The notes under the pieces were generated by a model. The model was not told the origin of the DNA. It did not search any database and worked only from the letters and a program-made list of their open reading frames with translations. From positions 52,018 through 116,017 of the forward strand of contig JAUSCZ010000033.1 in the NCBI GenBank assembly GCA_030674475.1: a stretch of 64,000 nucleotides of DNA, in the 5' to 3' direction. The translations under genes and the position numbers were made by a program. Every line of letters starts with the position of its first letter. Within the stretch, counting starts at the first letter, position 1. Shown here in pieces: positions 4,573 to 33,112 of this stretch. The stretch comes from Candidatus Omnitrophota bacterium. GTDB lineage: Bacteria; Omnitrophota; Gorgyraeia; Gygaellales; UBA12090.

Positions 4573-4674
4573 TTAGAAATTTGCACTTTGACAATTAAAC
4601 AAGAAATACCATTTGTCCCGCAGAAAAGCGGGATCCCGCTAAAGTGTTAAAATACCAAAGCGGGAAAAAAGGCA

Positions 4675-4760
4675 AATTATCCGCAAGGATAAGACGCAAA
4701 GCTTCCGGTCCCTCGATGCTAAAGTAAGGGATAGCGGAGCTACCAAAGGGTGAAAGCACT
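4675..4760 (+). promoter_or_regulatory. candidate c-di-GMP-I (GEMM) riboswitch aptamer
   Basis: GCAAGG...GACGCAAAGCttCCGGtCC...AGCGGaGcUACC matches the GEMM hallmarks (GACGCAAAGC, GG.C, AGC.GGG.UACC) recalled from the Vc2 aptamer. Sits between a promoter and a terminator. Confidence 0.5.
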
Positions 4761-6663: not shown

Positions 6664-7665
6664 ATGCGTGCTATAAATAAAATCACAATCTTAGGTGATG
6701 GCGGATGGGGGACGACCTTAGCTATACTCTTGGCTAGGAAGGGCTATAAAATAACCCTCTGGGGGGCGTTTAAAGATAATATAGCTGAAGTCAATAAGAC
6801 GCGGATTAATCAAAAATTCCTTCCCGGCATTAGATTGCCTTCCTCAATTGTTCTTACCTCTGATTTGGTTTTGGCCCTTAAAGCCGCGGATTTAATCGTC
6901 TTGGCCATTCCTTCCCAGTTTATCCGTCAGGTATTAAAACGGGTTAAGGAATTAGATGTTAGTTTTATTCCTTTCTTAAGCGTGGTAAAGGGCATTGAAA
7001 CTGAGACCCAGATGCGCGTTTCGGAAATAATTTACCAGGAGTTGGGAAAAAACCTAAGGTTGGCGGTGCTTTCCGGGCCGACCATTGCCTTAGAGGTGGC
7101 TAAAGAGGTGCCCACCACCGCGGTGATCAGCTCATCTGATGAAAAATTAGCCAAGTCATTACAGCGCGTTTTTATGACCCGTAGATTCCGGGTTTATACT
7201 AATCCGGATGTGGTTGGCGTGGAATTGGGCGGGAGCCTTAAGAATGTTATTGCCATAGCCTGCGGGATTTCCGATGGATTAGGCTTTGGCGCTAATACCA
7301 AGGCCGCGCTTTTGGCCCGGGGCCTGGCGGAAATCAGCCGGATGGGGATAGCGGCAGGCGCGAAAAAAGAAACCTTCAGCGGCATAACCGGCTTGGGTGA
7401 TTTAGTTACCACTTGTATCAGTCAGCATAGCCGCAACCGTTCAGTGGGCGAGCAGATCGGAAAGGGCGGGAAATTAAAGAATATCTTATCGCGCATGAAT
7501 ATGGTGGCGGAAGGCGTGGCCACTGCTAAGGCGGCGTACCTCTTAGGAAAGAAATACCGTGTCTCCATGCCGATTACTAATGAGGTCTATTCCGTGCTTT
7601 ACAAAAACAAAGACCCCTTTAGGGCGGTCAATGACCTGATGACCCGGCAGAGAAAAGAAGAATAG
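6664..7665 (+). CDS. gpsA: NAD(P)H-dependent glycerol-3-phosphate dehydrogenase
   Basis: ITILGDGGWGTTLA Rossmann motif; length and overall match to GpsA. Confidence 0.9.
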   Translation: MRAINKITILGDGGWGTTLAILLARKGYKITLWGAFKDNIAEVNKTRINQKFLPGIRLPSSIVLTSDLVLALKAADLIVLAIPSQFIRQVLKRVKELDVSFIPFLSVVKGIETETQMRVSEIIYQELGKNLRLAVLSGPTIALEVAKEVPTTAVISSSDEKLAKSLQRVFMTRRFRVYTNPDVVGVELGGSLKNVIAIACGISDGLGFGANTKAALLARGLAEISRMGIAAGAKKETFSGITGLGDLVTTCISQHSRNRSVGEQIGKGGKLKNILSRMNMVAEGVATAKAAYLLGKKYRVSMPITNEVYSVLYKNKDPFRAVNDLMTRQRKEE

Positions 7666-7861
7666 CTTCTTAATCCGCGGTTTTGTTGGTATATCTAATT
7701 ATTCAACTCACAAATCAGCCCTGGGTAGTGCTATTGATAAAACTTTCCTTTACAGCCTTGGAAAAGGCAGGTATAATCAAATGTTATTATGGAGATTTTA
7801 TCTGCTTAAAGTAATTATTATGCCGCGTGTGATTTCCGCGGCAAGAAGTGAAAATTTATAC

Positions 7862-7936
7862 CGGGGCGTGGCTCAGTTTGGCTAGAGCACTTGAATGGGG
7901 TTCAAGAGGTCACAGGTTCAAGTCCTGTCGCCCCGA
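7862..7936 (+). tRNA. tRNA-Pro (anticodon GGG)
   Basis: Manual cloverleaf: acceptor CGGGGCG/CGCCCCG, D-arm GCTC..GAGC, anticodon stem CTTGA/TCAAG with loop ATGGGGT, T-arm ACAGG TTCAAGT CCTGT, discriminator A. Confidence 0.85.
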
Positions 7937-8020
7937 CTAAAATATTATCACGCGAAGGACTTGAACAAAAGAGGAGTTTGAGGGGAAAAGATGATTTTCC
8001 CCTCAAGAGACGCTTCTTTG
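7916..8020 (+). repeat. direct repeat copy 1 (tRNA-Pro 3' 21 nt + 84 nt downstream)
   Basis: Identical, with one mismatch, to 8103-8207. Confidence 0.9.
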
Positions 8021-8102
8021 ATAAAGCTGCGGGGGTGACAGCGAAGCCCTGATGACACATCGGGGCTGAGCGTCAGAGGGGGCGGGGAGCCCCCTATGAA
8101 AA

Positions 8103-8207
8103 GTTCAAGTCCTGTCGCCCCGACTAAAATATTATCACGCGAAGGACTTGAACAAAAGAGGAGTTTGAGGGGAAAAGATGATTTTCCCCTCAAGAAACGC
8201 TTCTTTG
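8103..8207 (+). repeat. direct repeat copy 2 (duplicate tRNA-Pro 3' end + downstream hairpin)
   Basis: ttcaagtcctgtcgccccgact... repeated 187 bp downstream of copy 1. Confidence 0.9.
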
Positions 8208-8246
8208 CGCCATCAATCATCAACTAAAACTGACGGAGGTGAAATT

Positions 8247-8603
8247 ATGGTTTACGCCGGATCTGAAAGAAGAAAACAGCCACGGGTGGCGGGAAAGTTT
8301 GTGGTGTCTTACCGGATCAAGGCCGAGGTGGACAACTATGACATTTCCCAAACTCGTAACTTAAGCCTGGGAGGAATGATGTTGACTACCAATCGGGAAT
8401 TTACTTTAGGGACGGTTTTGGCTATTGATATACGACTTCCCTTTTTCATTGACGCCATAAATCTAACCGGAAGGGTTATTGATTCAAAAGAGGTGGTCAA
8501 GGATTTGATTTATGATACCAGGATTCAGTTTTTAGAGATTGATTCCAAGTCCGCGGGCATAGTTAATGATACGGTGGGATATTATTTAAAGACCCAGAAA
8601 TAA
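8247..8603 (+). CDS. PilZ-domain protein (c-di-GMP binding)
   Basis: RRKQPR and NLSLGGMML motifs (RxxxR ... D/NxSxxG). Start placed at the internal ATG, because the upstream part of the ORF lies in the duplicated sequence. Confidence 0.7.
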   Translation: MVYAGSERRKQPRVAGKFVVSYRIKAEVDNYDISQTRNLSLGGMMLTTNREFTLGTVLAIDIRLPFFIDAINLTGRVIDSKEVVKDLIYDTRIQFLEIDSKSAGIVNDTVGYYLKTQK

Positions 8604-22015: not shown

Positions 22016-22588
22016 TTGTTAAATCTTTATATCACCAAATCCAGAATCAGGCAGGATCTGCTTGCCCTATTTTTCACCAATCCTTCTCAAAGGTATTACC
22101 TCAGAGAGATTCAACGTATTCTCGGGCATTCCGCCGGCACTATCCGCAGGGAGCTTTTAAGATTCCAGGAAGACAGCTTATTCACCACCAAGAGAAACGG
22201 CAATCTTTTATACTATTCGTTAAACAGGAAGCATCCTTTATTTGATGAATTAAAAAGTATTATTTCAAAAACAATCGGCATGGAAGGAAGCCTGAAAAAC
22301 GCGTTAGTATCGCTTAAGGGAATAAGTTTTGCCTTTATTTACGGGTCGTTTGCCTCCAGGAAAGAAAAATCCGCGAGCGATATTGACTTGATGGTAATCG
22401 GGGACCCTGATGCGTCTTTACTTAATGAGAAAATAGCTCAGTCGGAAAATAAGCTGAAGAGAGAAATAAACCACCTGGTGTATTCTTTAGAAGAATACAA
22501 GGCGAAGAAAAAGACAAAAAGCGGTTTTATCACGGATATTCTGAATAATCCCAAAATAATGCTGATAGGACAGGAAAGTGAATTATAA
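22016..22588 (+). CDS. winged-HTH (ArsR-like) + minimal nucleotidyltransferase fusion protein
   Basis: YYLREIQRILGHSAGTIRRELLRF HTH; GSFASR...DIDLMVIGD Pol-beta nucleotidyltransferase motif. Confidence 0.65.
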   Translation: MLNLYITKSRIRQDLLALFFTNPSQRYYLREIQRILGHSAGTIRRELLRFQEDSLFTTKRNGNLLYYSLNRKHPLFDELKSIISKTIGMEGSLKNALVSLKGISFAFIYGSFASRKEKSASDIDLMVIGDPDASLLNEKIAQSENKLKREINHLVYSLEEYKAKKKTKSGFITDILNNPKIMLIGQESEL

Positions 22589-22605
22589 TACCAGGAAAAC
22601 TTTCC

Positions 22606-24414
22606 ATGAGTAACCCTAAATATAAAAATAGCCGCGGCCGGCTGCGCATTGGCGACGATTGGAACGCGATAACAATTATCGCGCTTTCGCAAAACAATCC
22701 TTTAAAGGCAATTGCTGAATTGGTGGAAAATAGCATTGACGCCCAGGCCGGACATATTACCATTATCCGCGGTAAAGAACACGGAGAGCACTACCTTAAA
22801 GTTATCGACGATGGACAGGGTATTCCTTGCGATGGGGAAGGTATTCCTGATTTTAAGTATGTGGCAACCCATATCTGTGATTCGCTGAAACGGCGTTTAA
22901 AAGAAGGAGGCTTCCAAAACATTCAGGGAGAATTCGGTATCGGCCTGCTTAGTTTTTGGACCGTCGGACATAAACTATTGATGGTCTCTTCCGGCAAAGA
23001 TGGCAAGGCCTACCAAATGAATATGGAGAAAGGTAAGCCAGGTTATTCAATATCCCACCGTCCCCATCTGCTACCCATAAAAGGAACGCAGTTAACCATA
23101 GCCTCTTTGCTCGCGGGAATACGTATGCTCAGCGGCGAAAAAATTCAACGATATTTAGCCTCCGAGTTAAGAGACCGGATTCGTCATTCAGGCGTGAAGA
23201 TTAAGATTATTGACCGAACCGCTCGCGCGGAGTTTGAGGTTGAACCGCGCCAATATGAAGGCCAGCTTATCCATGATCTTCCTTTGCTTACAACGGCTTT
23301 CGGTGAACCTATTTATGTGGAGATATATATCGCGGGAAAAAATAGCGAAAACAGCGTTAGCCTTTTTCGTTCAGGGACACGGGTGCTCCCTAATATCTCT
23401 ATACTTGATTTCTTTCAATGTGAGCCCTGGACTTCCGGTTATTTTGAGGGAATTATTGATGCTCCCTTCTTACATCTTACGCCCGGCACCAGAGACGGAA
23501 TAATTCATGATGAACTATTGTCCGGATTCTGTGATTCTATAGCGCCTCTTAAAGAACGGCTGACGGCAATTGCTTTGGAGCAAGGCAAAGCTGAAGAAGA
23601 GCGGATGAGCAAGAATATACTCCGTTCCGTGCAGAAGGCATTCCTTGATGCTATGACCGCTTTGCCGCCCGAAGAATATGATTGGTTTGGTATCGAGCAA
23701 AAGAACGCGCATCGTTCGTCCACTGACAACAATGATATCGCGAAGGAAAATGGCGTAATGATGGTTCCTGACGCGCTAAGGCAGGGAGAGAAGAAAAGCG
23801 GGCAGAAAGAGTTTTTCGAAATCGCCGGGCCGCTCTTTTCCACCCGTATCCAGCCAGGTTCGGCACTGGTGCAGGTGGGCAAGACGAAACCTTTCCGGGC
23901 TATCGGATTAGATCGCAACAAACGTCAGGTAGAAGAGAATCTCTCATATCTATGGTGTATTACGGAAGGAAAAGGAGATCTCGATAAATTAGACGGCGAG
24001 ATGGTTGTTTTTAACGCCCCCCTGGAACCCGGCTTGAGTAAATTAAAACTGGTGATTCAACGAGACGATATACGTTGCGAGACAGAAAGCATCGTTACCG
24101 TTGTGGATTCTTTGTTTAAGGTTTCGGCTGAAAACAGTGAATTCCCACGCAAGGGATTACCCGGCTATACGCTAGAAAGCGCCCCTGGATATACCTGGCG
24201 CTCGCGCTATGACGAAAAACGCAATATTGTTATCATCAACAGCGGCCATCGCGATTTCATTTACGCCGGACGCGAGAAAGCCAGAAAACTGCGCTATATC
24301 TGCCGCCTCTTCGCCAAAGAATTGATTTTGCAAAATTTTGCCGGTCTGTCTTCCGGAGAACTCCTGGAGCGTCTGGTCGAATTATCATTATACACTGAAG
24401 AGAATTTGCGCTGA
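22606..24414 (+). CDS. GHKL (Bergerat-fold, MORC/HSP90/MutL-like) ATPase, 602 aa
   Basis: N-box ELVENSIDA, G1 DDGQGI, G2 GEFGIGLLS. Confidence 0.7.
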   Translation: MSNPKYKNSRGRLRIGDDWNAITIIALSQNNPLKAIAELVENSIDAQAGHITIIRGKEHGEHYLKVIDDGQGIPCDGEGIPDFKYVATHICDSLKRRLKEGGFQNIQGEFGIGLLSFWTVGHKLLMVSSGKDGKAYQMNMEKGKPGYSISHRPHLLPIKGTQLTIASLLAGIRMLSGEKIQRYLASELRDRIRHSGVKIKIIDRTARAEFEVEPRQYEGQLIHDLPLLTTAFGEPIYVEIYIAGKNSENSVSLFRSGTRVLPNISILDFFQCEPWTSGYFEGIIDAPFLHLTPGTRDGIIHDELLSGFCDSIAPLKERLTAIALEQGKAEEERMSKNILRSVQKAFLDAMTALPPEEYDWFGIEQKNAHRSSTDNNDIAKENGVMMVPDALRQGEKKSGQKEFFEIAGPLFSTRIQPGSALVQVGKTKPFRAIGLDRNKRQVEENLSYLWCITEGKGDLDKLDGEMVVFNAPLEPGLSKLKLVIQRDDIRCETESIVTVVDSLFKVSAENSEFPRKGLPGYTLESAPGYTWRSRYDEKRNIVIINSGHRDFIYAGREKARKLRYICRLFAKELILQNFAGLSSGELLERLVELSLYTEENLR

Positions 24415-24590
24415 TTGCAGGCCGGGTTACCCTACTAACAGGAGCAAATTGACCCGCGGAAGATAAAAAGCGAGAATGCCAAGATTCAAGACCCCTTTTA
24501 TCCTATCCACGAGAGCAGATTTGCCAACTTAGAGACAAATTTTACCCAACAGACAAGCTTAGCGCCATGTTTGTTGGGTAATTTATTTTG

Positions 24591-24650
24591 TTGACATTTG
24601 TTACCTAACAAGTTAAATTATAGTATGGTTTGTTAGGTAACAGGAGGACT
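24591..24650 (+). promoter_or_regulatory. promoter with inverted-repeat operator (ttgttacctaacaa / ttgttaggtaaca) upstream of small protein A
   Basis: TTGACA ... TATAGT flanked by a 13 nt inverted repeat. Confidence 0.5.
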
Positions 24651-24651
24651 T

Positions 24652-24972
24652 ATGAGAGGTGTTATAAAAGGAGTATTGGCGGAAGAATTGGAAAATTCTC
24701 TTCGCATGAAGAAGGAATACGAAGGAGCTTTGAGGAATTTGCCTAAAGGGTGTCTTGCGGTAAGAAAAATACGAGGCCATGAGTATTGTTACCTGGCAGA
24801 AAGAGTGGATAAGAAAGTAAAGTATATTTACAAAGGTAAACTATCCGCAGAAGAAAAGAAAAGGTATGAAGAGGCCAAAGAATTAAGGGCTAAATACAGG
24901 AAATTATTGTCTCAAGTCAAAAAGCAAATAAGATTCTTAAGGAGTTCTCTGCGTGGAAAAGAAGCAGTCTGA
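24652..24972 (+). CDS. small basic protein, paralog A (putative regulator/antitoxin-like partner of the nucleotidyltransferase)
   Basis: ~60% identical to the 27362-27679 product; operator palindrome upstream. Confidence 0.6.
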   Translation: MRGVIKGVLAEELENSLRMKKEYEGALRNLPKGCLAVRKIRGHEYCYLAERVDKKVKYIYKGKLSAEEKKRYEEAKELRAKYRKLLSQVKKQIRFLRSSLRGKEAV

Positions 24973-25256
24973 TTTATGCCTTGAAATCTTAAGGAGGCTC
25001 CATAAGGCCGGTATCTTGGATGATTTAATCCTTATAGGCAGTTGGTGCGTATATTTCTATAGAGAATATTCCAGCAATGTGTCCTACATGGATCAAACCA
25101 CTATGCGAAATCAGTCATTCAGGACAAAGAAAGACAGAAAACTTGAACTTGTTTTCAACCGAAAAAGAAATTTCCAGGGGATGGCGTAAGATTGCCGTTA
25201 AGGTGGTTGATATTTTTGGTAATGATACGATAAGAGTAATTAAGGTGAATATATAA
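24953..25256 (+). pseudogene. decayed fusion: N-terminal ~45 codons of nucleotidyltransferase paralog A joined to a 3' remnant of a type III mod gene
   Basis: MEKKQSDLCLEIL...LIGSWCVYFY matches the start of the 27660 protein. SFRTKKDRKLEL and, in another frame, RKIAVKVVDIFGNDTIRVIKVNI* match the C-terminus of the 29779-32064 Mod. Confidence 0.7.
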
Positions 25257-25299
25257 GTTTTTATATGGCCAATATATGATAAAAGGGGGGGGGTAATGC

Positions 25300-26991
25300 A
25301 TGAAAAAAAATCTTTTGGATACAAAAACAGCTTCATGGGGGGAGTTAATTAAGAATGGAAGAACCTTTATGGTCCCAAGATTTCAAAGAGATTATTCGTG
25401 GGAGGAAGAGCAATGGGATGATCTTTGGTATGACTTGGTTAATTTAGAGGAAGAAGATTTTCATTATATGGGGTATTTAGTATTACAAAATAGCCCCACG
25501 AATGAATATCTGGTTATCGACGGACAGCAGAGATTGACGACTTTAAGTATTATTGCTTTAGCGGTGATTCAACACATCGCGGAATTGATTGAGAAAGGTA
25601 AGGACCATAAAAACAACGAAGAGCGCAAGAAATTGTTGATGGACTCGTTTCTTGGATATAAAGATCCGGCTTCTTTGGTAGCCAAGAGCAAATTAACGCT
25701 TAATCGTAATAATAATGATTTTTATCAAAGTTACTTATTGCGTTTTAGAAAACCAACGAGTAAAAGTAAACTCAAGCCTTCTGAAAAACTTCTTATTAAC
25801 GCTGTCGAATATTTTTATGAAAAGATAAAGTTTAAGTTCGGTCAGGATATTTCAGGTGAGAAATTGGCTGATTTTCTTGATAAGAAAACGGCGGATAAAT
25901 TTATATTCACGTTTATTACTGTTGATAATGATTTGAATGCTTACAAAGTATTTGAAACACTCAATTCAAGGGGGGTGAGGCTATCTCCCACGGATTTGTT
26001 AAAAAATTATTTGTTTATGGTGGCGGCTCAAAAAGGCGAAACTGATATCGATCAAGCTGAAAGACAATGGCAAAGTATTAATAATATTTTAGGTGGAATA
26101 GAGCTTACCACATATCTAAGGCATTTTTGGAATTCGAGAAATATGATCGCCAGAAAGCAGAATTTATTTAAAGTTGTTAAGAATTCAATTACTGACGCGG
26201 ATCAGGCCTTCGCTTTATTGGATGAACTTGAAAATAACGCGCAACTTTACGCGGCTTTTTCTCAGCCAGAAGATGAGCTTTGGAAACAGGCTGAGCAAAG
26301 CGAATATATTAGACAATTAAAATTATTCGGCGTGACCCAGTGTTATCCTCTTTTGTTGGCGGCTTATAAGAAGTTTGACCCGAATGAATACGCTCGTTTA
26401 TTGAGATGCTGTTGTGTGATTGCTTTTCGATACAATGTGATTGGCGGGCTAAATCCCAATAAGCTGGAAGATGAATACAGCAAAACGGCTCAGGATGTTT
26501 ATGCCGGCACGCTGAAAAACGCGCGGGAAATATTTCATAACCTGAAATCGGTTTATGTCATTGATGAAGAGTTTGAAAGCTCATTCGCCGCGAAAAGTAT
26601 TACCACCAAGGGAAAGGGCGCGAAATTAGTCAGATATATCCTTTTCTCATTGGAAAATCAGATAAGCAATAAAAAATATGATTTTAGTGATAGCTCCGTA
26701 ACTATCGAGCATATATTACCGGAAAATCCTTCTCAAAGCTGGGAGTCAAATTTTACTATTGAAGAGCAAATTCAATTTGTATTTCGTTTAGGCAATTACG
26801 CGCTTTTGGAAGAATCAAAAAATAAAATGTGTCAAAACGACTTTTATCCGACAAAGAAAGAAATTTACAAAACAAGCAGTTATAAAATAACAGCCCAAGA
26901 TAGCGTATGCGATGAATGGAACCCCGAAAGAATTTCAGAGAGACAAAAGAAGTTGGCAAAATACGCTAAAACTGTCTGGAAATTTGAGTGA
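25300..26991 (+). CDS. GmrSD-like type IV (modification-dependent) restriction enzyme, DUF262 + DUF1524
   Basis: N-terminal DUF262 (ParB-like) motifs (...VIDGQQRLTT), C-terminal His-Me/HNH-like SVTIEHILPEN. Confidence 0.75.
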   Translation: MKKNLLDTKTASWGELIKNGRTFMVPRFQRDYSWEEEQWDDLWYDLVNLEEEDFHYMGYLVLQNSPTNEYLVIDGQQRLTTLSIIALAVIQHIAELIEKGKDHKNNEERKKLLMDSFLGYKDPASLVAKSKLTLNRNNNDFYQSYLLRFRKPTSKSKLKPSEKLLINAVEYFYEKIKFKFGQDISGEKLADFLDKKTADKFIFTFITVDNDLNAYKVFETLNSRGVRLSPTDLLKNYLFMVAAQKGETDIDQAERQWQSINNILGGIELTTYLRHFWNSRNMIARKQNLFKVVKNSITDADQAFALLDELENNAQLYAAFSQPEDELWKQAEQSEYIRQLKLFGVTQCYPLLLAAYKKFDPNEYARLLRCCCVIAFRYNVIGGLNPNKLEDEYSKTAQDVYAGTLKNAREIFHNLKSVYVIDEEFESSFAAKSITTKGKGAKLVRYILFSLENQISNKKYDFSDSSVTIEHILPENPSQSWESNFTIEEQIQFVFRLGNYALLEESKNKMCQNDFYPTKKEIYKTSSYKITAQDSVCDEWNPERISERQKKLAKYAKTVWKFE

Positions 26992-26994
26992 TTT

Positions 26995-27222
26995 ATGGCG
27001 CCGCGCGCGCAAGGTTATGAAAAACTATTCCCGCCTTTTGTGCCGGAGCTTAGGAAGCGGGTTAAGGAGTGGCGGGATAAGGGCTACGAGGGGGCGAGCG
27101 CGACATCAAGGGCTCTTTTAAGCTGGCGGTTCAAAGAAGACCTCTTGCTTATGGAATATAAGCTTACAGTGAGAGAAAGACGAGATAATGTCTACTGTCC
27201 GGGTCTGACCCCTAAAACCTAA
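26995..27222 (+). pseudogene. 5' fragment of a type III res gene (duplicate of the 33113 gene N-terminus)
   Basis: GYEKLFPPFVPELRKRVKEWRDKGYEGASA; ~90% nt identity to 33205-33345, then diverges and stops. Confidence 0.7.
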
Positions 27223-27361
27223 AACCGCTTGAAAGTTACCATACTTAGTATGACATTCCTGCATTTGTATGGTAACTTTTTTGTTTGACAATGGTTGTCA
27301 TACAATATATACTATTATATAGTTTGTATGGTAACTAATTCAATCGAACGGAGAGTTTAAT

Positions 27362-27679
27362 ATGGGAGTCATAAAAGGAGTGCTTAAAGAAGAACTCGAG
27401 AATTCTATACGCATGAAAAGCGACTATGAGCGTGAATTGGCAAAGCTGCCTAAAGGCAGCCTCATTAAGAAAAAGGTTAAGGGGCATGAGTACTATTATC
27501 TTTTGTTGCGGGAGAAAGGGAAGGTAAGATTCATCTATAGAGGGAAAGTGTCTGATGAAGAAATAAAAAAATACAAAGAAGCAAAAGAATACAGGGCTAA
27601 GTACAGAAAATTATTATCTCAGGTAAAAAAACAAATTAGATTCTTAAGGAGCACTCTGCGTGGAAAAGAATCAATATGA
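27362..27679 (+). CDS. small basic protein, paralog B
   Basis: Paralog of the 24652 product; upstream inverted repeats agttaccatac / gtatggtaact. Confidence 0.6.
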   Translation: MGVIKGVLKEELENSIRMKSDYERELAKLPKGSLIKKKVKGHEYYYLLLREKGKVRFIYRGKVSDEEIKKYKEAKEYRAKYRKLLSQVKKQIRFLRSTLRGKESI

Positions 27680-28352
27680 ACTATGCATTAAGGTTCTAAA
27701 AAGATTTGATAAGGCCGGAGTTCTAAAAGACGTTATTCTTATAGGTAGTTGGTGTATTCCATTCTATAAAGAATATTTTGCGGGCATAAAGTATATCTCG
27801 ACCATTAAGACAAGAGATGTAGATTTCTTGATTCCCAACCCGCGCGGAATCAGGGCTAATGTGAATATCCCAGAATTATTAAAAGACTTAGGATTTATCA
27901 TTGGTTATAGGGGAGCAAAAGGATATATTAAATTAGAACATCCTGATCTGGTAGTGGAATTTTTATCTCCAGAGAAAGGAAAAGGCACCGATAGGCCAAT
28001 CCCCTTACCGAAGTTAGGCGTTAACGCGGTTGCTCTGAGATTTTTGAGTTTGCTTACTGATAATGTAATTAAGGCTAAAGTTGAAGATTTTGAAGTCTTA
28101 TTACCTCATCCTGCCAATTTCGCCCTCCACAAATTAATAATTTTCCAGCGTAGACTCAAAGAAGATAAAGCAATAAAAGACAGAAATGCGGCGGTAGAAA
28201 TTCTTAAAGCTTTGATAACTAAGGGCGAAGCGGTAACTATCAAGCACGTTTTTAATTCCATGCTTCCAAAATGGCAGAAAAAAGTTATAAAAGGATTGCA
28301 GGAAGCCAAAGAAAGAGAGATTATTCTTATACTACAAAATGCCGGAAAATAG
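27660..28352 (+). CDS. Pol-beta superfamily nucleotidyltransferase, paralog B (AbiEii/DUF1814-like toxin candidate)
   Basis: LIGSWCIPFY...TRDVDFLIPN (hGS ... DxD). Start overlaps the small protein. Confidence 0.55.
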   Translation: MEKNQYELCIKVLKRFDKAGVLKDVILIGSWCIPFYKEYFAGIKYISTIKTRDVDFLIPNPRGIRANVNIPELLKDLGFIIGYRGAKGYIKLEHPDLVVEFLSPEKGKGTDRPIPLPKLGVNAVALRFLSLLTDNVIKAKVEDFEVLLPHPANFALHKLIIFQRRLKEDKAIKDRNAAVEILKALITKGEAVTIKHVFNSMLPKWQKKVIKGLQEAKEREIILILQNAGK

Positions 28353-28451
28353 TCTATGTAGTGTATGTATAAAGGAATAAGGGGTTATGCCTCAAAACTC
28401 CAAAATAGTCCTTGACGTTGGAATTGATAAGAGATTGGATAAATTGTAAAT

Positions 28452-29732
28452 TTGAGGTCTGACCCTATTAGCTCATTGACTGTTCACATAGGAGAATTAA
28501 ATGTGGCCATATATTTTTTCAATCAATACAGTGCTTTAATTAATGAATTTAACATAGACAATGATAAGGTGGGGCAACAAAAAAAGAAGATTTTTGTTTC
28601 GATGTGGTATGGAGAAGAAAATGATGGCACTAAGCAAGAACAATCGGATCTTTATGACGAATATTTTAAAGGAGCAATCGAGAAAAAAGGAATCTACAAA
28701 GTAATTTCTACAAAGATAAAAGATAATGATAAGGATATTGATATTGATTTTGGTCTGAAATATTTGCTTGAAACCACGATAGCTGATGATACTAGAAAAG
28801 ATGATATAAGTTTTGACATTTTCAGAAAGATTATCGAAGCCAGTCTAATTATTTGTGATGTTACGCCGATTGGAAAAATTCAGGATAAAGAAAAGCCGGT
28901 ATTTTGCGATAATGTCATGGCAGAATTAGGATTAAGCTTAGCATGGAAACTACCCGAACAAGTTATCATCCTTTTTAATATAGAAAATAGTTTTAAATTC
29001 TCCTTGAACGAGCTTCCATTCAATATCAAAGGCTATTTTGTCCACAGATTAGATTTCAATAATCAAAATTTTAAAAAAGACTTATTAAAGATTATTAAAG
29101 TAAGATTTGAAGGCATAAATGAAAAAAAGAGTATTTTTATAAAAAATATAAAGAGCAAGCTTGATCAGGATTCTATTAGCGCTTTAGCGGGACGAAATGG
29201 ATTGATGTTTTTTGATCAGAAAGTAGATGTGCATACGATTCGCTATTTATTATCTCTTGGTATTATACGAACCGAACAATTTCCATCAAGACCTATTAGT
29301 TTTGGATATTGTTTGACCGAAATGGGCAAAGTTGTTCTTACTCAACTCGGTATACAGTTATTTCCAGAAGAATTCATTGATTTTTATTTAGTGCGTTACT
29401 GGGAGGGATATTCTGCTGCGAAGGGTTATGCCCCGCACAATTTTGAAGAAAAGCAGAAAGCTTTCGAAAAAGCTTATGGAATTAAAGATTGGAAAGATAG
29501 TCTACGAATTTTTGTAGAACAAATACTGCAAGAGGTTAAAAAAGTAATTGAAGATGCTCCGACAGTAAAAAGAGGAATAGAAGAGCGTTCTAAGGAAAAA
29601 CAAAATGGATATAGTCATGATTTAGAGATTTTTCCCTATTTCGTTGATTCCTATCCCTTTGAGTTGGTGAATTCAACAGTTTCAAAATGGTTGAAGTTGA
29701 CGCATAATAAGAAGAAAAATGAATCAGCATGA
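28452..29732 (+). CDS. hypothetical protein with N-terminal nucleoside 2-deoxyribosyltransferase/SLOG-like domain
   Basis: IFVSMWYG ... LIICDVTP ... NVMAELGLSLAW...VIIL resembles the N-deoxyribosyltransferase/TIR-like Rossmann signature. Start uncertain: TTG at 28452 or GTG at 28503. Confidence 0.4.
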   Translation: MRSDPISSLTVHIGELNVAIYFFNQYSALINEFNIDNDKVGQQKKKIFVSMWYGEENDGTKQEQSDLYDEYFKGAIEKKGIYKVISTKIKDNDKDIDIDFGLKYLLETTIADDTRKDDISFDIFRKIIEASLIICDVTPIGKIQDKEKPVFCDNVMAELGLSLAWKLPEQVIILFNIENSFKFSLNELPFNIKGYFVHRLDFNNQNFKKDLLKIIKVRFEGINEKKSIFIKNIKSKLDQDSISALAGRNGLMFFDQKVDVHTIRYLLSLGIIRTEQFPSRPISFGYCLTEMGKVVLTQLGIQLFPEEFIDFYLVRYWEGYSAAKGYAPHNFEEKQKAFEKAYGIKDWKDSLRIFVEQILQEVKKVIEDAPTVKRGIEERSKEKQNGYSHDLEIFPYFVDSYPFELVNSTVSKWLKLTHNKKKNESA

Positions 29733-29778
29733 ACCAATTTAAGCGTCTCTACAATGTTACCCTCGGCTGATCCAGGAT

Positions 29779-32064
29779 TTGTTTTTTAAAGGTAAAAAGA
29801 TAATGAGATTATCGGATAACGAAAAAAGAGACGCGATAAAGTTGCTTCAGGAAGGGAAGCCTTTGCCTGATAAATACCGCTTTCTTTTGTTTGCTGATGA
29901 CCGGGAGGTTGAGCTGGTGTGGAATGGGAAGACGCAGGAAGTTTGCAATCTGGTTTTGCCCTTTCAGACTATTGAGCATATTGATGAGCCGAGGAGTGAG
30001 AGAATAAAAAAGGGCGGTTATGTTGGGGATTTGTTTGATCCCTCCGGGCGTCAGATTCGGGGATGGACGAATAAGCTGATATGGGGAGATAACAAGCTGA
30101 TTTTATCGTCTTTAAAGAATGGGCCAATGAGGCGGGAAATTGAAAAACAGGGCGGTTTAAAGCTGATCTATATTGACCCGCCGTTTGACGTGGGAGCGGA
30201 TTTTTCAATGAATGTTGAGATCGGAGACGAATCCTTCACCAAAAAGCCGTCAGTTATTGAAGAGGTAGCTTATCGGGATACCTGGGGGCAAGGTGCGGAT
30301 AGCTTTATTGCTATGATTTACGAGCGGTTGAAGCTCATGCACGGACTTTTGGCGGATGACGGCAGTATTTATGTGCATTGTGATACACGTGTTAGTTCAT
30401 ATATGAAATTAGTACTAGATGATGTGTTTTCCAAAGAAAATTTCATCAATGAAATCATTTGGAAAAGATCAACTGCCCATAGCGACAATAGAGCTTATGG
30501 AAATCTGCATGATACGATTTTCTATTACACAAAAAGCGATGATGCAGTCTTTAATCCCGTTTATGATCCCTATTCGGAAGACTACATTCAAACCTATTAT
30601 CGGCATGATGACGCTAAGGGTAAATTCTTGGATCGAGATTTGTCTGCAAAAGGTTTATCAGGCGGAGGCTATCAGTATGAATGGAAAGGTAAAAATGGAA
30701 TTTGGCGTTGTCCAAAGACCACTATGGAGCGATACGAAGCCGAGGATAAAATATATTACACTTCCAACGGTACACCACGATATAAGCAATATCTAAATGA
30801 GATGCCGGGTATTTCTGCGCAAGACATTTGGACCAATATATTTGCGGTTAATTCACAAGCCAAAGAGCGAATAGACTATCCAACACAAAAACCAGAGACT
30901 CTTCTTGAGCGTATTATCAAAGCGTCTTCCAACGAAGGCGATCTTGTTGCTGATTTCTTTTGTGGTTCCGGCACGACTTTAGCAGTTGCGGAAAAATTGG
31001 GGCGGAAATGGATTGGTGCAGATCTCGGACGTTTTGCTATTCATACATCCCGTAAGCGGTTAATTCAGGTTCAGCGCGAGATGAAAAAAGAGGGTAAGAA
31101 TTTTAGGGCGTTTGAGATTCTTAACCTCGGCAAATATGAGCGGGAGCAATATGTCAATGTTGATGTGGATATCCGGGAGCAGGAAAAACAGCAGATTTTA
31201 GAAAACAAAGAAAAGCAGTTTATTGAACTGATCCTTTCTGCCTATAACGCCCAAGCTGTGGATTCTTACAATTCGTTTGTCGGTAAGAAGCGTGACCGGC
31301 TGGTTGCGGTCGGTCCTGTTGATACGCCGGTATCAGCCGCTTTTGTTGATCAGGCGATTAAGGAAGCTAAGGAGAAAGGAATCACTAAATTTGATGTTCT
31401 CGGTTTTGATTATGAGATGGGGATTGATTTCGCGCAACTTAGCCGCCAGGGCGTTGATGTGCAGTTTAAGGTTATTCCCCGGGAAGTTTTTGACCGCCGC
31501 GCGGTGGAAAAAGGGCAGGTGAAATTCTACGATGTTGCCTACATTGAAGTGAAGCCGATCATCAAAGGGCGGGGGAATAATAAAACGATAGCGGTTGAAC
31601 TGTGCGATTTCAGCGTATTTTATAATCAGGACAGCGTTGAAGAGATAGAGGGATCGCTTAAAGAAGGTTCAAGTAAGATCGTAATTGAGAATGGACAAGT
31701 TATTAAGGTATCCAAAGACAAAAAGACAGCGGTGGTAACTAAAGAAGTTTTGACCAAGAAATGGACGGACTGGGTGGATTACTGGTCGGTTGATTTTAAT
31801 ATGGAGAACAGAAAAGAGATTGTCCGGGTGCCGGTAAATCCCCCCTTGCTCCCCTTTTCCAAAGGGGGGTTGGAATTTGAAGAAAAATGGACTGGCGGGT
31901 ATATATTTGAAAATGAGTGGCAGTCATTCAGGACAAAAAAAGAGAGAAAACTTGAGCTTATATCTGCTGAGAAAGAAGTTTCCCTGGGGCGGCGTAAGAT
32001 TGCCGTTAAGGTGGTTGATATTTTCGGCAATGATACGACAAGAGTAATTGAGGTTAATATATGA
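29779..32064 (+). CDS. mod: type III restriction-modification DNA N6-adenine methyltransferase (Mod)
   Basis: Motif IV IYIDPPF and motif I DFFCGSGTT in the beta-class order. Start may be the ATG at 29803. Confidence 0.85.
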   Translation: MFFKGKKIMRLSDNEKRDAIKLLQEGKPLPDKYRFLLFADDREVELVWNGKTQEVCNLVLPFQTIEHIDEPRSERIKKGGYVGDLFDPSGRQIRGWTNKLIWGDNKLILSSLKNGPMRREIEKQGGLKLIYIDPPFDVGADFSMNVEIGDESFTKKPSVIEEVAYRDTWGQGADSFIAMIYERLKLMHGLLADDGSIYVHCDTRVSSYMKLVLDDVFSKENFINEIIWKRSTAHSDNRAYGNLHDTIFYYTKSDDAVFNPVYDPYSEDYIQTYYRHDDAKGKFLDRDLSAKGLSGGGYQYEWKGKNGIWRCPKTTMERYEAEDKIYYTSNGTPRYKQYLNEMPGISAQDIWTNIFAVNSQAKERIDYPTQKPETLLERIIKASSNEGDLVADFFCGSGTTLAVAEKLGRKWIGADLGRFAIHTSRKRLIQVQREMKKEGKNFRAFEILNLGKYEREQYVNVDVDIREQEKQQILENKEKQFIELILSAYNAQAVDSYNSFVGKKRDRLVAVGPVDTPVSAAFVDQAIKEAKEKGITKFDVLGFDYEMGIDFAQLSRQGVDVQFKVIPREVFDRRAVEKGQVKFYDVAYIEVKPIIKGRGNNKTIAVELCDFSVFYNQDSVEEIEGSLKEGSSKIVIENGQVIKVSKDKKTAVVTKEVLTKKWTDWVDYWSVDFNMENRKEIVRVPVNPPLLPFSKGGLEFEEKWTGGYIFENEWQSFRTKKERKLELISAEKEVSLGRRKIAVKVVDIFGNDTTRVIEVNI

Positions 32065-32165
32065 ATCAATTAAGCAATGACCATTTCGAGGATATCCTCG
32101 AAATGGTAGATAGCAGAAAACATAAAAAAGATTACGAGCAAAAAAAGCAAGAGGTTATTATTTAG

Positions 32166-32963
32166 ATGAAGTGTATCCATATTTATTCAGATGAAAGTCG
32201 GCATAGAAATGAACGATTTTTGCTCCTGGCGGGCTTATGGATTGAGGAATCAAAAATCAAAGCGGCTGAGAATGAAATTACTGCTTTCCGCAAAAAACAC
32301 GGTTTCGTTAATTCTCAAGGGCAGCATGCCGATTTTCTTGGTGAGTTTAAGTGGACAAAGGTTTCTCAGCGTTATTTGCCGGTCTATAAAGAATTGGCTG
32401 ATATAGCGTTTAAATGGATTGCGGAAGATAGAGCTCGTTTTAATGTGATTCTTGTTGACACTCAGGATGCAGCTGTTACGGCGTTCGGAAACATAAAGGA
32501 AGAGGGATATTTTAAGCTTCTTTATCAGCTTTATTACCACAATTCAAAAACTCCTGCTCTATATAAAATCTATCCTGACAGTATCACTAATCCGGTTCAA
32601 GCGCGCGTTAGTCTTGATAAGCTACAGCAGTGTCTTGAAGTGGCCCTGCGCAACAGGTTTCTACCGCTTCTGAACCCCGCGGAGACTCAAGAGCCGGTCT
32701 CTTTTGTGAATAATATTTTACCAATTGATTCAAAGCATGCGCCGTTTATTCAGATTGCCGATGTGATCATGGGCGCGATCGGGTACTTACAAAACGGTTT
32801 GTTTAGAAATCCCGCGGCGAAAAAGGCAAAAGTTGAATTGATGAAATATATTTTTGATAAAATAACTCTATCGGGCGCTATACAGGTGCAAGGAAAGAAA
32901 TACTTTGTCGCGCGGTCAACGAAGTTTAATATATGGTTGTTCCGGCCAAAAAAAACCTCTTAA
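32166..32963 (+). CDS. DUF3800-family protein
   Basis: N-terminal IHIYSDESRH and the overall pattern of DUF3800; located between mod and res. Confidence 0.6.
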   Translation: MKCIHIYSDESRHRNERFLLLAGLWIEESKIKAAENEITAFRKKHGFVNSQGQHADFLGEFKWTKVSQRYLPVYKELADIAFKWIAEDRARFNVILVDTQDAAVTAFGNIKEEGYFKLLYQLYYHNSKTPALYKIYPDSITNPVQARVSLDKLQQCLEVALRNRFLPLLNPAETQEPVSFVNNILPIDSKHAPFIQIADVIMGAIGYLQNGLFRNPAAKKAKVELMKYIFDKITLSGAIQVQGKKYFVARSTKFNIWLFRPKKTS

Positions 32964-33112
32964 AATTTTAAGAGGTTTTTTTGGAGTCCTGGGCCCTGGG
33001 TCAATGCCCCGTGTGACATCAGTCACAGGATACGTGACCCAGTAACTCCAAAAATAGGATATCACAAATCTCGAGTTTGTCAAGGTTTTAGATAGATAGA
33101 GAGAGAAATAAT

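Follow-up and report, generated by a model that had tools for sequence, protein, structure and literature searches.

The insert beside a tRNA-Pro(GGG) gene in the stretch of Omnitrophota DNA analysed here (64,000 nucleotides, hereafter the window) is a member of a family of miniature elements that lack ORFs and are about 165-190 nt long, each consisting of a left module followed by a two-hairpin core. In Omnitrophota bacteria, nine or more further tRNA and tmRNA genes have related units at the same position, and literature searches found no earlier description of these units. We consider it probable that the locus arose by insertion of this strain-variable element into the 3' part of tRNA-Pro, by a mechanism that would involve a trailer RNA and copying of the target.

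The tRNA-Pro locus and its direct repeat

The tRNA-Pro(GGG) gene (7862-7937, plus strand) was called by ARAGORN, scores 63.2 bits with the Rfam tRNA model over 7862-7936, and appears to be the regenerated, functional gene. A promoter-like site on the same strand (TTTACA-17-TATAAT, 7749-7777, 11 of 12 consensus matches), kept in the strain alignment, lies 5' of the tRNA, and from it the tRNA and the insert are probably transcribed together. On its right side the variable spacer ends at the first host gene downstream, which encodes a PilZ-domain protein (8247-8603, plus strand) and is no part of the element. The insert is too small to accommodate a protein gene, and the only ORF crossing it is a 91-aa reading frame on the minus strand (7948-8223) that spans both copies of the repeat.

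Repeat search identified a single 105-nt direct repeat, 7916-8020 (copy A1, plus strand) against 8103-8207 (copy A2), in which 104 of 105 bases are equal (99%), the copies being spaced 187 nt apart and differing only at G8009 versus A8196. The repeat starts at G53, immediately 5' of the T-loop, and comprises the final 21-22 nt of tRNA-Pro and then 83-84 nt of trailer; A1 is thus the tRNA 3' end from G53 to position 74 plus a first left module. Both copies contain the hairpin TTGAGGGGAAAAGATGATTTTCCCCTCAA (7978-8006 and 8165-8193). Between them lie 82 nt of unique DNA (8021-8102), of which a 38-nt piece occurs once in the window against a chance expectation of 0 matches. The first-pass annotation, which reported a duplication of the tRNA-Pro 3' end and its downstream sequence around 82 unique bases, is borne out on this point. 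The layout is A-B-A rather than S-S, with B in single copy in the window.

The duplication is genuine and not an assembly artefact. The source DNA is metagenomic, and assembly errors are common where a repeat exceeds k. Against this, an independent Logan contig (L002, k=31, run SRR13727527) starts at window position 8166, precisely where the first 31-mer holding the A2-specific base 8196 begins, so both repeat variants must be present in the reads; and relatives that were assembled differently (L011, L034 and L055) have the same layout with homologous inserts. Nor can plain tandem duplication of the tRNA end, the alternative raised in the first-pass annotation, explain the locus, because homologues of the 82-bp segment stand at other tRNA genes. 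Artefact and plain duplication are both refuted, and we assign them practically no probability.

Architecture of the insert

In the window, one full unit occupies 7938-8102; next come a displaced tRNA fragment (8103-8124) and a second left module without a core (8125-8207). The solo module behind the full unit extends the repeat, usually 22-27 nt long, to 105 nt. The full unit begins right after position 74 of the intact tRNA, on the tRNA strand, and is followed by a copy of the 3' end of its cognate tRNA, from the T-loop or T-stem through position 74.

The first left module (83 nt, 7938-8020, plus strand) is kept ahead of the core at eight other tRNA or tmRNA targets. It comprises a T-loop complement, AGGACTTGAAC, at 7956-7966, the motif AAAGAGGAGTTTGA, the hairpin at 7978-8006, and CAAGAGACGCTTCTTTG. 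Across the family the left module is about 80 nt long and contains a complement of the local T-loop, a AAAGGGGAG-TTTGA motif and a G/C hairpin.

The core (8021-8102, plus strand), previously described only as 82 bp of unique DNA, is recognised by our covariance model R1 with 66.9 bits at 8029-8104, the sole copy in the window. It contains a 5' GGGGG (8031-8035), a P1 strand TGAC(A)GC (8036-8042) that pairs with GCGTCA (8070-8075), tandem GA/GA, hairpin 1 at 8045-8067, hairpin 2 (AGGGGGC-GGGGA-GCCCCCT) at 8077-8095 and the tail ATGAAAA at 8096-8102. The family core, of about 80 nt, reads GGGG-UGACAGCGA, a variable hairpin 1, GAGCGUCA-N-AGGGGC, a loop and GCCCCUAUGA. The blocks GTGACAGCGA, GAGCGTCA and AGGG owe their invariance solely to the search patterns, which demanded them. 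The possibility that the 82-nt segment is a diverged tRNA 5' half was rejected, there being no in-register similarity while the flanking repeat is 99% identical.

The displaced tRNA-Pro 3' fragment (8103-8124, plus strand; from repeat search and folding) contains the T-loop, the 3' strands of the T stem and acceptor stem, and the discriminator plus one base. It is predicted to pair with CGGGGGTGACAG at the 5' end of the core, forming a minihelix like an acceptor/T-arm (fold -58.1 kcal/mol, z = -5.7). The second left module (8125-8207, plus strand; from repeat search and strain alignment) has no core after it, an arrangement found at this tRNA-Pro locus only. Inspection of the unit ends found no terminal inverted repeats: the left end, TAAAATATT, and the right end, TATGAAAA, are not inverted copies, and the only inverted repeats in the unit are the internal hairpins and the T-loop complement.

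A conserved and covarying fold

Far from being a decayed remnant, the 82-nt segment is a conserved, covarying structured core. Bases pair in 93% of the alignment cells. The pairs of hairpin 1 covary (GC10/AU6/CG3/UA1 and CG9/GC7/AU1/UA1), with none of 500 shuffles reaching the observed score. G-U pairs are confined to the tRNA-sense strand. The whole window unit folds with -89.9 kcal/mol (z = -8.07). A reading of the intervening DNA as an excision remnant, one of the two suggested at first, is not supported, given this covarying core beside many tRNA and tmRNA genes.

Rfam scans at gathering thresholds, covering 17 related loci and the whole window, returned only tRNA, tmRNA, group I introns and c-di-GMP-I riboswitches, and a scan of four related loci at E <= 10 gave nothing further of relevance. 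A hammerhead ribozyme, considered because CTGATGA and GAAA strings occur within the 82 bp, was discarded since neither a ribozyme nor any other Rfam family matches 7600-8400 at E <= 10. Homology to tmRNA was likewise rejected, the tmRNA_permuted match over L015 scoring 27.6 bits against a gathering score of 47.

Related units at other tRNA and tmRNA genes

Searches with the core pattern matched 18 metagenome and 11 genome loci, 3 of which are chance matches; the genome matches are mostly labelled Omnitrophota. The targets are tRNA-Pro, Met, Lys (UUU, CUU), Gly, Thr, Trp, Val (UAC, CAC) and Glu, and tmRNA (L015 and L022). The core lies 84-114 nt 3' of the tRNA-Pro, Lys, Gly, Met and Thr genes and of tmRNA, 70 nt 3' of tRNA-Val(TAC) and 78 nt 3' of tRNA-Trp. 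Units downstream of a tRNA are always on the tRNA strand, and the displaced 3' end of that same tRNA always comes next. At the loci examined, exact repeats of 15-27 nt equal the local tRNA and stop one base past the discriminator. Two related units occur in L030, and L036 and L040 come from the same genome bin; judging from these sequences, the unit appears to proliferate within genomes.

In a second set of loci (L023, L024, L029, L039 and L041) the tRNA genes are complete and lie about 120 nt downstream of the core; these loci lack a tRNA-end repeat, and their cores are closed by a covarying leader stem. In view of these loci, the core may be first and foremost a functional RNA linked to tRNAs and not a selfish element.

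Each left module carries the complement of its local T-loop. In a systematic comparison of cognate and non-cognate targets the complement is cognate-specific in the Pro/Met, Gly, Thr and tmRNA units, and by inspection it is also cognate in the Trp and Glu units. The core in the window is 88% identical to that of a tRNA-Met unit and just 74% identical to that of another tRNA-Pro unit, and these tRNA-Pro and tRNA-Met genes have only the T-loop sequence GTTCAAGTCC in common. The repeat nonetheless equals the local tRNA at the Pro, Met, Lys, Gly, Thr, Trp and tmRNA loci, leaving no constant block derived from an attP. That it fits the local tRNA even though closely related units occupy different tRNAs is evidence against a carried attP. 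Priming of cDNA by mature tRNA, as in Neurospora retroplasmids, was also rejected: three targets have T at position 74 of the repeat, and CCA is absent, indicating that the repeat was copied from DNA. As a separate observation, each unit both holds a T-loop complement and ends in T-loop sequence, which is the basis of the pairing idea discussed below.

Variation among sister strains

In seven contigs from near-identical strains, whose GpsA proteins are 99% identical or fully identical, the repeat is present once and the spacer measures 390 nt, against 581 nt in the window allele. Such single-copy alleles, consisting of tRNA-Pro and one left module, are found among contigs L005-L013, and their sole module corresponds to 8125-8207. 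The tRNA-Pro site is unoccupied, without any module, in L014 and L054. L011 carries a full unit with a 22-nt repeat, while L034 and L055 have a 72-nt repeat, the left end being truncated in L034. The repeat at tRNA-Pro may therefore be 22, 72 or 105 nt long, and the left junction varies too; the right junction (TATGAAxA followed directly by GTTCAAGTCC) is constant.

L040 has a long-repeat layout like that of the window, with a decayed distal copy, and the long repeats of both stop exactly at the border between module and core, which recombination would fit as well. The 104/105 identity of A1 and A2 is equally well explained by an in-situ 105-nt duplication around a core-only insert and by insertion of a full unit followed by gene conversion.

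Search for mobilising enzymes

No integrase was found in or beside the insert among about 30 related loci. The lone tyrosine recombinase in the window is a housekeeping XerD equivalog (1850-2740), about 5 kb upstream and outside the repeats; apart from it, no reverse transcriptase, transposase or other integrase was found among the window ORFs scanned. An all-versus-all BLAST of ORFs within 3.5 kb of the units revealed no recurrent partner protein, only locus-specific synteny.

Three core patterns found no match in viral contigs. An 18-mer from the left module gave 10 matches, of which 8 were taken as chance because the following hairpin is absent and the sequence is coding-like; the remaining two (L045 and L052) have only a similar hairpin in common. 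A phage or attP origin was accordingly rejected, the core being absent from viral contigs and the 18-mer matches being due to chance or to the hairpin.

A small GIY-YIG gene lies between the promoter and tRNA-Pro in L003, where three tandem units carry a tRNA 5' fragment. Truncated GIY-YIG copies are fused to the tRNA 5' end in L008 and L011, and remnants occur in L034 and L055. What had looked like an 85-aa GIY-YIG gene in L008 and L011 is actually a 57-aa N-terminal remnant with in-frame read-through of the tRNA gene. In the window strain no GIY-YIG gene was found, either at the locus or in the 64 kb. A role for GIY-YIG as the mobilising nuclease was rejected: beyond the tRNA-Pro locus, where some strains have it, it occurs only near L026.

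Proposed mechanism and alternatives

In the mechanism that we propose, the unit would be transcribed as a trailer from the tRNA promoter, and the trailer RNA would fold into a compact multi-helix structure. Its 3' end would imitate an acceptor/T-arm minihelix, so that tRNA-processing enzymes could free the unit, as has been proposed for the RtT RNA of E. coli. The geneless unit would then spread in trans to tRNA and tmRNA genes with a matching T-loop sequence, and the rest of the repeat would be copied from the target on insertion, through staggered breaks or replicative or target-primed synthesis, with no attP as cargo. The resulting long direct repeats would allow tandem gain and loss by homologous recombination, giving single-copy alleles like those of most sister strains. 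More tentatively, the units could represent an undescribed class of geneless, RNA-structured mobile elements that home by base pairing to nearly any tRNA or tmRNA T-loop, the target 3' end perhaps being duplicated through an RNA intermediate, as in SINEs, or by staggered integration of the Cas1/casposase kind supplied in trans.

The first-pass annotation took the repeats for the scar of an integrase, and part of that reading stands: the tRNA is regenerated, its 3' fragment is directly repeated, the junction falls in the T-loop and the site is polymorphic, but no integrase was found at the related loci. A classical exchange between an attP with the tRNA 3' end and an attB in the T-loop, catalysed by a tyrosine integrase whose gene lies elsewhere or formerly lay in a larger island, with the unit as a deletion remnant or a cis-mobilizable mini-element between attL and attR, would account for the first three features, which are typical of tDNA islands (PMC4383910; PMC1762012), and for the empty and single-copy sites of sister strains. 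A circular 187-nt unit recombining within the 105-nt homology of a solo-module allele would even give the exact window layout. This explanation is nevertheless unlikely. The integrase-carrying occupied site that was anticipated in relatives is missing from the approximately 30 loci and from the viral contigs, which also lack the core. The 88%-identical units in tRNA-Pro and tRNA-Met each have a repeat that matches their own tRNA beyond the common T-loop, whereas attP exchange inside the T-loop would be expected to leave a hybrid, non-functional tRNA. The left junction and repeat length (22, 72 or 105 nt) differ at one and the same tRNA, and the insert is a conserved covarying structure rather than DNA in decay. 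The evidence points to duplication of the target upon insertion more than to a classical attP x attB exchange.

We hold it no likelier that the units, rather than being mobile, are an RtT-like host RNA gene of tRNA operons. The core and its tRNA-like 3' end would then form a functional small RNA produced by tRNA processing, and copies would be gained and lost at tRNA loci through local duplication and through unequal crossing-over and gene conversion between them. The similar geometry of the E. coli tyrT-tyrV locus, the cores upstream of complete tRNAs with their covarying leader stem, and the strong sense-strand structure all suit such a gene. It is harder to reconcile with presence and absence among near-identical strains, with genome-specific subfamilies, or with the more than nine tRNA species hit and their target-matched repeats, which call for transposition-like spread; no Rfam family, including RtT (RF00391), matches at E <= 10. 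The two readings also overlap, since an element can be both mobile and expressed. Breaks made at tRNA genes by a GIY-YIG nuclease, with microhomology-mediated repair producing duplications or templated insertions, offer a further and very improbable route. The gene in L003, the remnants in four other contigs (L008, L011, L034 and L055) and the tandem units of L003 with their tRNA 5' fragments recall SegB of phages T4 and T6, which adjoins tRNA genes and drives microhomology tandem amplification, with C-terminal truncation of SegB (PMC13096335). Yet GIY-YIG is limited to two groups of loci and missing from the window strain, at the locus and in the whole 64 kb, and it leaves the conserved core at many tRNA loci unexplained.

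Comparison with known systems

The closest known analogue, which has no detectable homology, is the 178-bp repeat of E. coli tyrT encoding RtT RNA (rttR, RF00391). Of the four RtT units at the tyrT-tyrV locus, three are 178 bp long and arranged in tandem. Every unit closes with the final ~19 nt of tRNA-Tyr, beginning within the T-loop (ATCCTTCCCCCACCACCA), and holds GGGGAAGGAT, complementary to its tRNA-Tyr end fragment. RtT RNA, whose function is still unexplained, is reported to participate in tyrT transcript processing (bioRxiv 10.1101/2024.07.17.603846). Like the Omnitrophota units, RtT units lie in a tRNA operon, right after the tRNA and on the same strand, occur in tandem, and end in the 3' fragment of their own tRNA with an internal complement to it. 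The RF00391 model gave no match at E <= 10 in the window or at four long-tail loci, against 133-137 bits for the E. coli positive control. Further, RtT was found here only at E. coli tyrT-tyrV, whereas the Omnitrophota units occur at many tRNAs and tmRNA, vary among strains, and have their target-matched T-loop complement in a separate left module.

Islands and prophages integrated into tDNA by tyrosine integrases interrupt a tRNA or tmRNA gene and restore it with sequence of their own, the displaced 3' fragment marking the far end (Islander, PMC4383910), and in mycobacteriophage Ms6 the attP core lies in the T-loop of tRNA-Ala (PMC1762012). The window likewise has an intact tRNA (7862-7937) and a displaced fragment (8103-8124), as do nine or more other loci; the identity block starts at the T-loop as in Ms6, and tmRNA is also a target (L015 and L022). 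In contrast to these islands, the Omnitrophota inserts are ORF-less and 82-190 bp long with no integrase found nearby, kindred units stand in different tRNAs with fully target-matched repeats, and both the left junction and the length of the repeat can differ at a single tRNA.

The units resemble MITEs and CIMEs, the non-autonomous derivatives of integrative elements, in being small, geneless, dependent on functions in trans and present or absent by strain. They differ in lacking terminal inverted repeats, in having duplications of 15-105 nt rather than a short fixed target duplication, and in keeping an RNA-like structure on one strand. We know of no cognate autonomous element for the unit.

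A long target segment is duplicated at insertion by casposons at tRNA-Pro 3' ends (14-15 bp), in CRISPR repeat duplication and by target-primed retroposons. The Omnitrophota units would share with these a target-derived duplication longer than that of ordinary IS elements, one fixed and one varying junction, and the tRNA 3' end as target. However, we found neither a gene for Cas1/casposase or reverse transcriptase nor inverted-repeat ends or an A-rich tail, and the duplication is longer and more variable than that of casposons. Some sister strains also resemble the SegB system, with a GIY-YIG gene abutting tRNA-Pro, truncation at the tRNA 5' end and tandem units (PMC13096335); the difference is that GIY-YIG is missing from the window and most unit loci, and that amplified SegB units carry whole genes rather than a conserved non-coding core.

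Implications

Genes for tRNA and tmRNA are classic landing sites of integrase-bearing islands. Here an island-type scar encloses a conserved non-coding fold of ~170 nt with no enzyme gene and, at many tRNAs, a target-tailored repeat. In practice, short-read assemblies break at tRNA genes that carry such units, and the units may be taken wrongly for the boundaries of islands. Should the units be mobile, they would exemplify T-loop targeting that is independent of a carried attP and would provide a tractable case of long target-derived duplications in bacteria. If they are instead host RNAs, they would be a second, phylogenetically remote RtT-type RNA of tRNA operons, which would suggest that this architecture is a general solution rather than an oddity of E. 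coli.

The tRNA-Pro repeat and its chromosomal setting

The tRNA-Pro(GGG) gene lies at 7862-7937 on the forward strand (ARAGORN; 63.2 bits against the Rfam tRNA model), and a strong promoter-like site, TTTACA-17-TATAAT, is present at 7749-7777. A repeat search recovered one 105-nt direct repeat, 7916-8020 (A1) and 8103-8207 (A2), with 99% identity and 187-nt spacing, the single difference being G8009 versus A8196. The repeat starts at G53, directly 5' of the T-loop, and comprises the final 21-22 nt of tRNA-Pro plus 83-84 nt of trailer containing a 12-bp hairpin. The 82 nt between the copies (8021-8102), here termed the core, are found nowhere else in the window. In run SRR13727527, an independent k=31 Logan contig begins at window position 8166, the first 31-mer to reach the A2-specific base, indicating that both repeat variants are present in the reads. 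The claim made in the first-pass annotation, of a repeat that includes the tRNA-Pro 3' end, with one mismatch and 82 bp between its copies, is thus upheld by ARAGORN and Rfam, the repeat search, and the Logan contig. In order, the locus consists of tRNA-Pro, a left module (the trailer segment, 7938-8020), the core, a displaced copy of the tRNA 3' end (8103-8124), a second left module (8125-8207), and host DNA.

The DNA around the locus is ordinary Omnitrophota chromosome. The window's GpsA shares 99% identity with the protein of 'Omnitrophica WOR_2 bacterium GWB2_45_9'. Upstream of tRNA-Pro are encoded the C-terminal end of a DNA ligase (HHH and BRCT domains), a metallo-beta-lactamase-fold hydrolase, XerD, a CCA-adding enzyme, a response regulator, and GpsA; downstream are a PilZ gene, homoserine dehydrogenase, and a PLP-dependent enzyme that is probably threonine synthase. 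No phage-type integrase, reverse transcriptase, or transposase emerged from Pfam scans of all larger window ORFs, and the sole tyrosine recombinase (1850-2740) is a XerD equivalog scoring 394 bits against a cut-off of 329.6. A low-GC stretch at 22016-35797 (0.34-0.39 at 24-30 kb) encodes proteins of defence type, namely two nucleotidyltransferases, a HATPase_c_3 protein, GmrSD, an N6/N4 DNA methylase, a DUF3800 protein, and a ResIII helicase; this probable restriction/defence island yielded no integrase. A c-di-GMP-I-GGC riboswitch aptamer matches at 4662-4748, upstream of small ORFs, with 59 bits, exactly the gathering score; the gene following the tRNA-Pro locus encodes a c-di-GMP-binding PilZ domain.

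Strain variation at the tRNA-Pro site

The gpsA-PilZ spacer was taken from 15 contigs of one species complex. Twelve were aligned with the window; of the three outside the alignment, L054 and L055 were read directly and L034 was scanned. Seven contigs (L005, L006, L007, L009, L010, L012, and L013) contain tRNA-Pro, one 83-nt module, and then host gccatcaatc, giving a spacer of 390 nt versus 581 nt in the window. In L014 and L054 there is no module, and unrelated native trailers follow tRNA-Pro. In L011, tRNA-Pro is followed by the module, an 82-bp core homologue, a repeated 22-nt tRNA 3' end, and then an L014-type native trailer. L034 and L055 carry the homologue as in L011, with a module truncated at its left end and a 72-nt repeat (22 nt of tRNA and 50 nt of native trailer, one mismatch). 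Across tRNA-Pro alleles the right junction is constant (..TATGAAxA/GTTCAAGTCC, the slash marking the junction), the repeat length is 22, 72, or 105 nt, and the left end also varies.

The left-module hairpin (7978-8006 and 8165-8193) is cleanly swapped relative to L005-L013, GGGGAAAAGATGATTTTCCCC to CCCCGCCGATGGCGGGG, with identical TTGA/TCAA flanks and a GATG centre in both; on the minus strand a T-rich run comes after it, and its score is terminator-like. In some sister strains tRNA-Pro is separated from its promoter by a small GIY-YIG nuclease gene (L003 4152-4648; also at this locus in L008, L011, L034, and L055). The 85-aa gene is complete in L003, where three ~120-nt units follow it in tandem. 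In every one of them GGGGCGTG (tRNA positions 2-9) is joined to CCCCGTTACAA, which is the start of the tRNA and the flank 5' of it in reverse complement. The L008 and L011 genes break off after codon 57 and continue in frame into the tRNA.

Related units at other tRNA and tmRNA genes

A search pattern derived from two tRNA-Pro copies (GTGACAGCGA, a gap, and GAGCGTCA-N-AGGG(G)) matched 18 metagenome loci and 11 genome loci. Two of the matches, L018 (apparently GC-rich coding sequence) and L042 (apparently coding), were rejected as due to chance. The core-bearing genome records are mostly labelled Omnitrophota, the others being one Edwardsbacteria bin, one 'Planctomycetia' bin (two copies), and one 'Gammaproteobacteria' bin. 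A covariance model finds a single copy in the 64-kb window, at 8029-8104 (66.9 bits), and adds divergent copies missed by the pattern, including a second unit in L030.

The core lies 84-114 nt downstream, on the same strand, of tmRNA (L015/L022), tRNA-Lys UUU (L016/L021 and L031), Gly CCC (L020), Met CAU (L025/L027/L035), and Thr GGU (L030); it follows Val UAC in L037 by 70 nt and tRNA-Trp in the second L030 unit by 78 nt. At these loci it is preceded by a window-type left module (motif AAAGGGGAGTTTGA, hairpin GGGGAAA..TTTCCCCTC, and CAAgGAnnCGCTnCTTTAG) and followed by an exact 15-27-nt copy of the gene's own 3' end. These displaced copies begin in the T-loop or T-stem and end one base beyond the discriminator; that of L036 is 47 nt long and begins in the anticodon stem.

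Each left module contains, near its start, a short segment complementary to the cognate T-loop: AGGACTTGAAC for T-loop GTTCAAGTCC in the Pro and Met units, AATCGAACCC for GGGTTCGATT in Gly, ATTGAACCC for GGGTTCAAT in Thr, and ATTCGAAC for GTTCGAAT in tmRNA. A systematic comparison of eight units found no such match to non-cognate tRNA ends. Outside that comparison, the Trp unit has CGAACCT for AGGTTCG and, by inspection, the Glu unit has GAATCGAACC for GGTTCGATTC.

Several variants were observed. A ~55-nt insert (GGTTCGACTnCGCTCACCAT..CGAACCATCCTGAGCGAAGTCGAAGGA) in the hairpin-2 loop of the otherwise normal cores of L015, L026, and L038 suggests another small nested repeat. In L023, L024, L029, L039, and L041 the core has no tRNA-end repeat, and a complete tRNA (Ser GCU, Ser CGA, or Gly CCC) follows ~120 nt downstream; post-core GAAGCGCGACA, GAAGAGCCAG, or GAAGAGTCAG is complementary to sequence just 5' of the tRNA, forming a covarying long-range stem. 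The L024 core lacks hairpin 1 (GTGACAGCGAAGCGTCAG), and group I introns interrupt tRNA genes adjoining core copies at L024 2621-2843 and L028 2195-2397. In L015, a sub-threshold permuted-tmRNA match (1223-1386; 27.6 bits, E = 0.02) spans the tmRNA 3' end, left module, and start of the core, whose 5' end, GGGGGTGA, is identical to that of the Omnitrophota tmRNA in L022. Another mini-insertion family, unrelated to the first, occupies tRNA-Leu(CAG) (L029 6677-6930, L026 6549-6680 in scan orientation, and L039). Its ~100-nt units (..GTGCGTAAGTGGCCTTGGATGCAGC..GCTGCATA), two in tandem in L029, are each followed by the tRNA 3' end CAAGTCCCTCCTTCCGCA and contain a strand of their own that resembles the 5' acceptor-stem strand.

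Structure of the core and unit

The 82-bp core is conserved and structured. Single-sequence folds agree on a core comprising P1 (UGAC(A)GC with GCGUCA), tandem GA/GA, a variable hairpin 1, and hairpin 2 (AGGGGC-loop-GCCCCU). In a 21-sequence alignment 93% of cells pair, and sliding the register lowers the paired fraction to 36-58% in every case. Invariance of the P1 block is a product of the search requirement only. The basal pairs of hairpin 1 occur as four types each (GC10/AU6/CG3/UA1 and CG9/GC7/AU1/UA1), and the covariation score was reached by 0/500 shuffles. G-U pairs fall on the tRNA-sense strand, which is therefore the structured strand.

In the window only, the 5' end of the core, CGGGGGTGACAG, is predicted to pair with CTGTCGCCCCG of the displaced fragment in a 12-bp helix resembling stacked acceptor and T stems (-58.1 kcal/mol, z = -5.7). 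The whole unit, 7938-8124, has a predicted fold of -89.9 kcal/mol (z = -8.07), closed by a helix between the T-loop complement and the displaced T-loop; the prediction of this helix holds for the Pro and Met units and not consistently for others.

Proposed movement and origin of the repeat

The first-pass annotation read the repeat as an integrase-made integration or excision scar, with an excision remnant or a duplicated attachment site suggested. In favour of this, tDNA islands share the geometry of a regenerated target and displaced fragment (PMC4383910), and the T-loop is the core in Ms6 as it is here (PMC1762012). Unlike tDNA islands, however, the window unit lacks the defining integrase and its repeat behaves differently, and the picture of an integrase scar with debris inside is not borne out. 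The window left module and core are each 88% identical to those of the tRNA-Met unit L025, whereas the core is only 74% identical to that of the other tRNA-Pro unit, L011. The tRNA-Pro and tRNA-Met genes have T-loop GTTCAAGTCC in common and little else within the repeat, and yet the copy beside each unit matches its own tRNA end perfectly. Had a carried attP crossed over in the T-loop, a hybrid tRNA would have resulted; this counts against a carried attP. Lineage-specific features are shared by the units of a single contig (the Thr and Trp units of L030) or a single genome bin (L036, L040). The repeats are tailored to their targets, no recurrent protein lies beside the units, and the core was not found in viral contigs; T-loop-guided copying from the target is therefore favoured. 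T-loop homology or pairing would select the insertion site, and the rest of the repeat would be copied from the target, perhaps by staggered DNA integration, target-primed synthesis from an RNA copy, or break repair.

The distal module (8125-8207), which has no core, is the sole module of single-copy sister alleles, and, in a scan of all retrieved loci, solo modules of this kind occurred nowhere but at this tRNA-Pro locus. The core may have inserted into a solo-module allele with 105 nt duplicated in place, or the full unit may have inserted with the usual 22-nt duplication, followed by gene conversion. The A1/A2 identity of 104/105, versus 84-90% between modules of different units, leans towards the former or very recent conversion. 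L040 (tRNA-Val) has the window-type layout with a degenerate distal core, making tandem arrays with decaying distal copies a family property. Recombination between the 105-nt copies would restore a single-copy allele like that of most strains; single-copy alleles have a different hairpin (ccccgccgatggcgggg) within otherwise identical flanks.

The nearest analogue of the Omnitrophota units is the E. coli tyrT-tyrV locus, with four RtT units that score 133-137 bits with the RF00391 model; three of these follow tyrV as tandem 178-bp units. Every unit ends in ATCCTTCCCCCACCACCA, tRNA-Tyr 3'-end sequence beginning within the T-loop, and holds GGGGAAGGAT, complementary to that fragment. RtT is reportedly involved in processing of the tyrT transcript, its function being still unknown (bioRxiv 10.1101/2024.07.17.603846). 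RF00391 does not match the Omnitrophota units, so the likeness is one of architecture and not of family membership. SegB-driven amplification (PMC13096335) is brought to mind by the GIY-YIG gene that some sister strains have beside tRNA-Pro; this gene is absent from the window and most loci.

Literature searches found no prior description of these units, and to our knowledge the family is undescribed. The identity of the unit is based on computed results; its way of moving and the role of its RNA are inferred. The repeat itself is real and biologically meaningful, and the unit that it delimits belongs to a family of miniature structured elements carried by tRNA and tmRNA genes.
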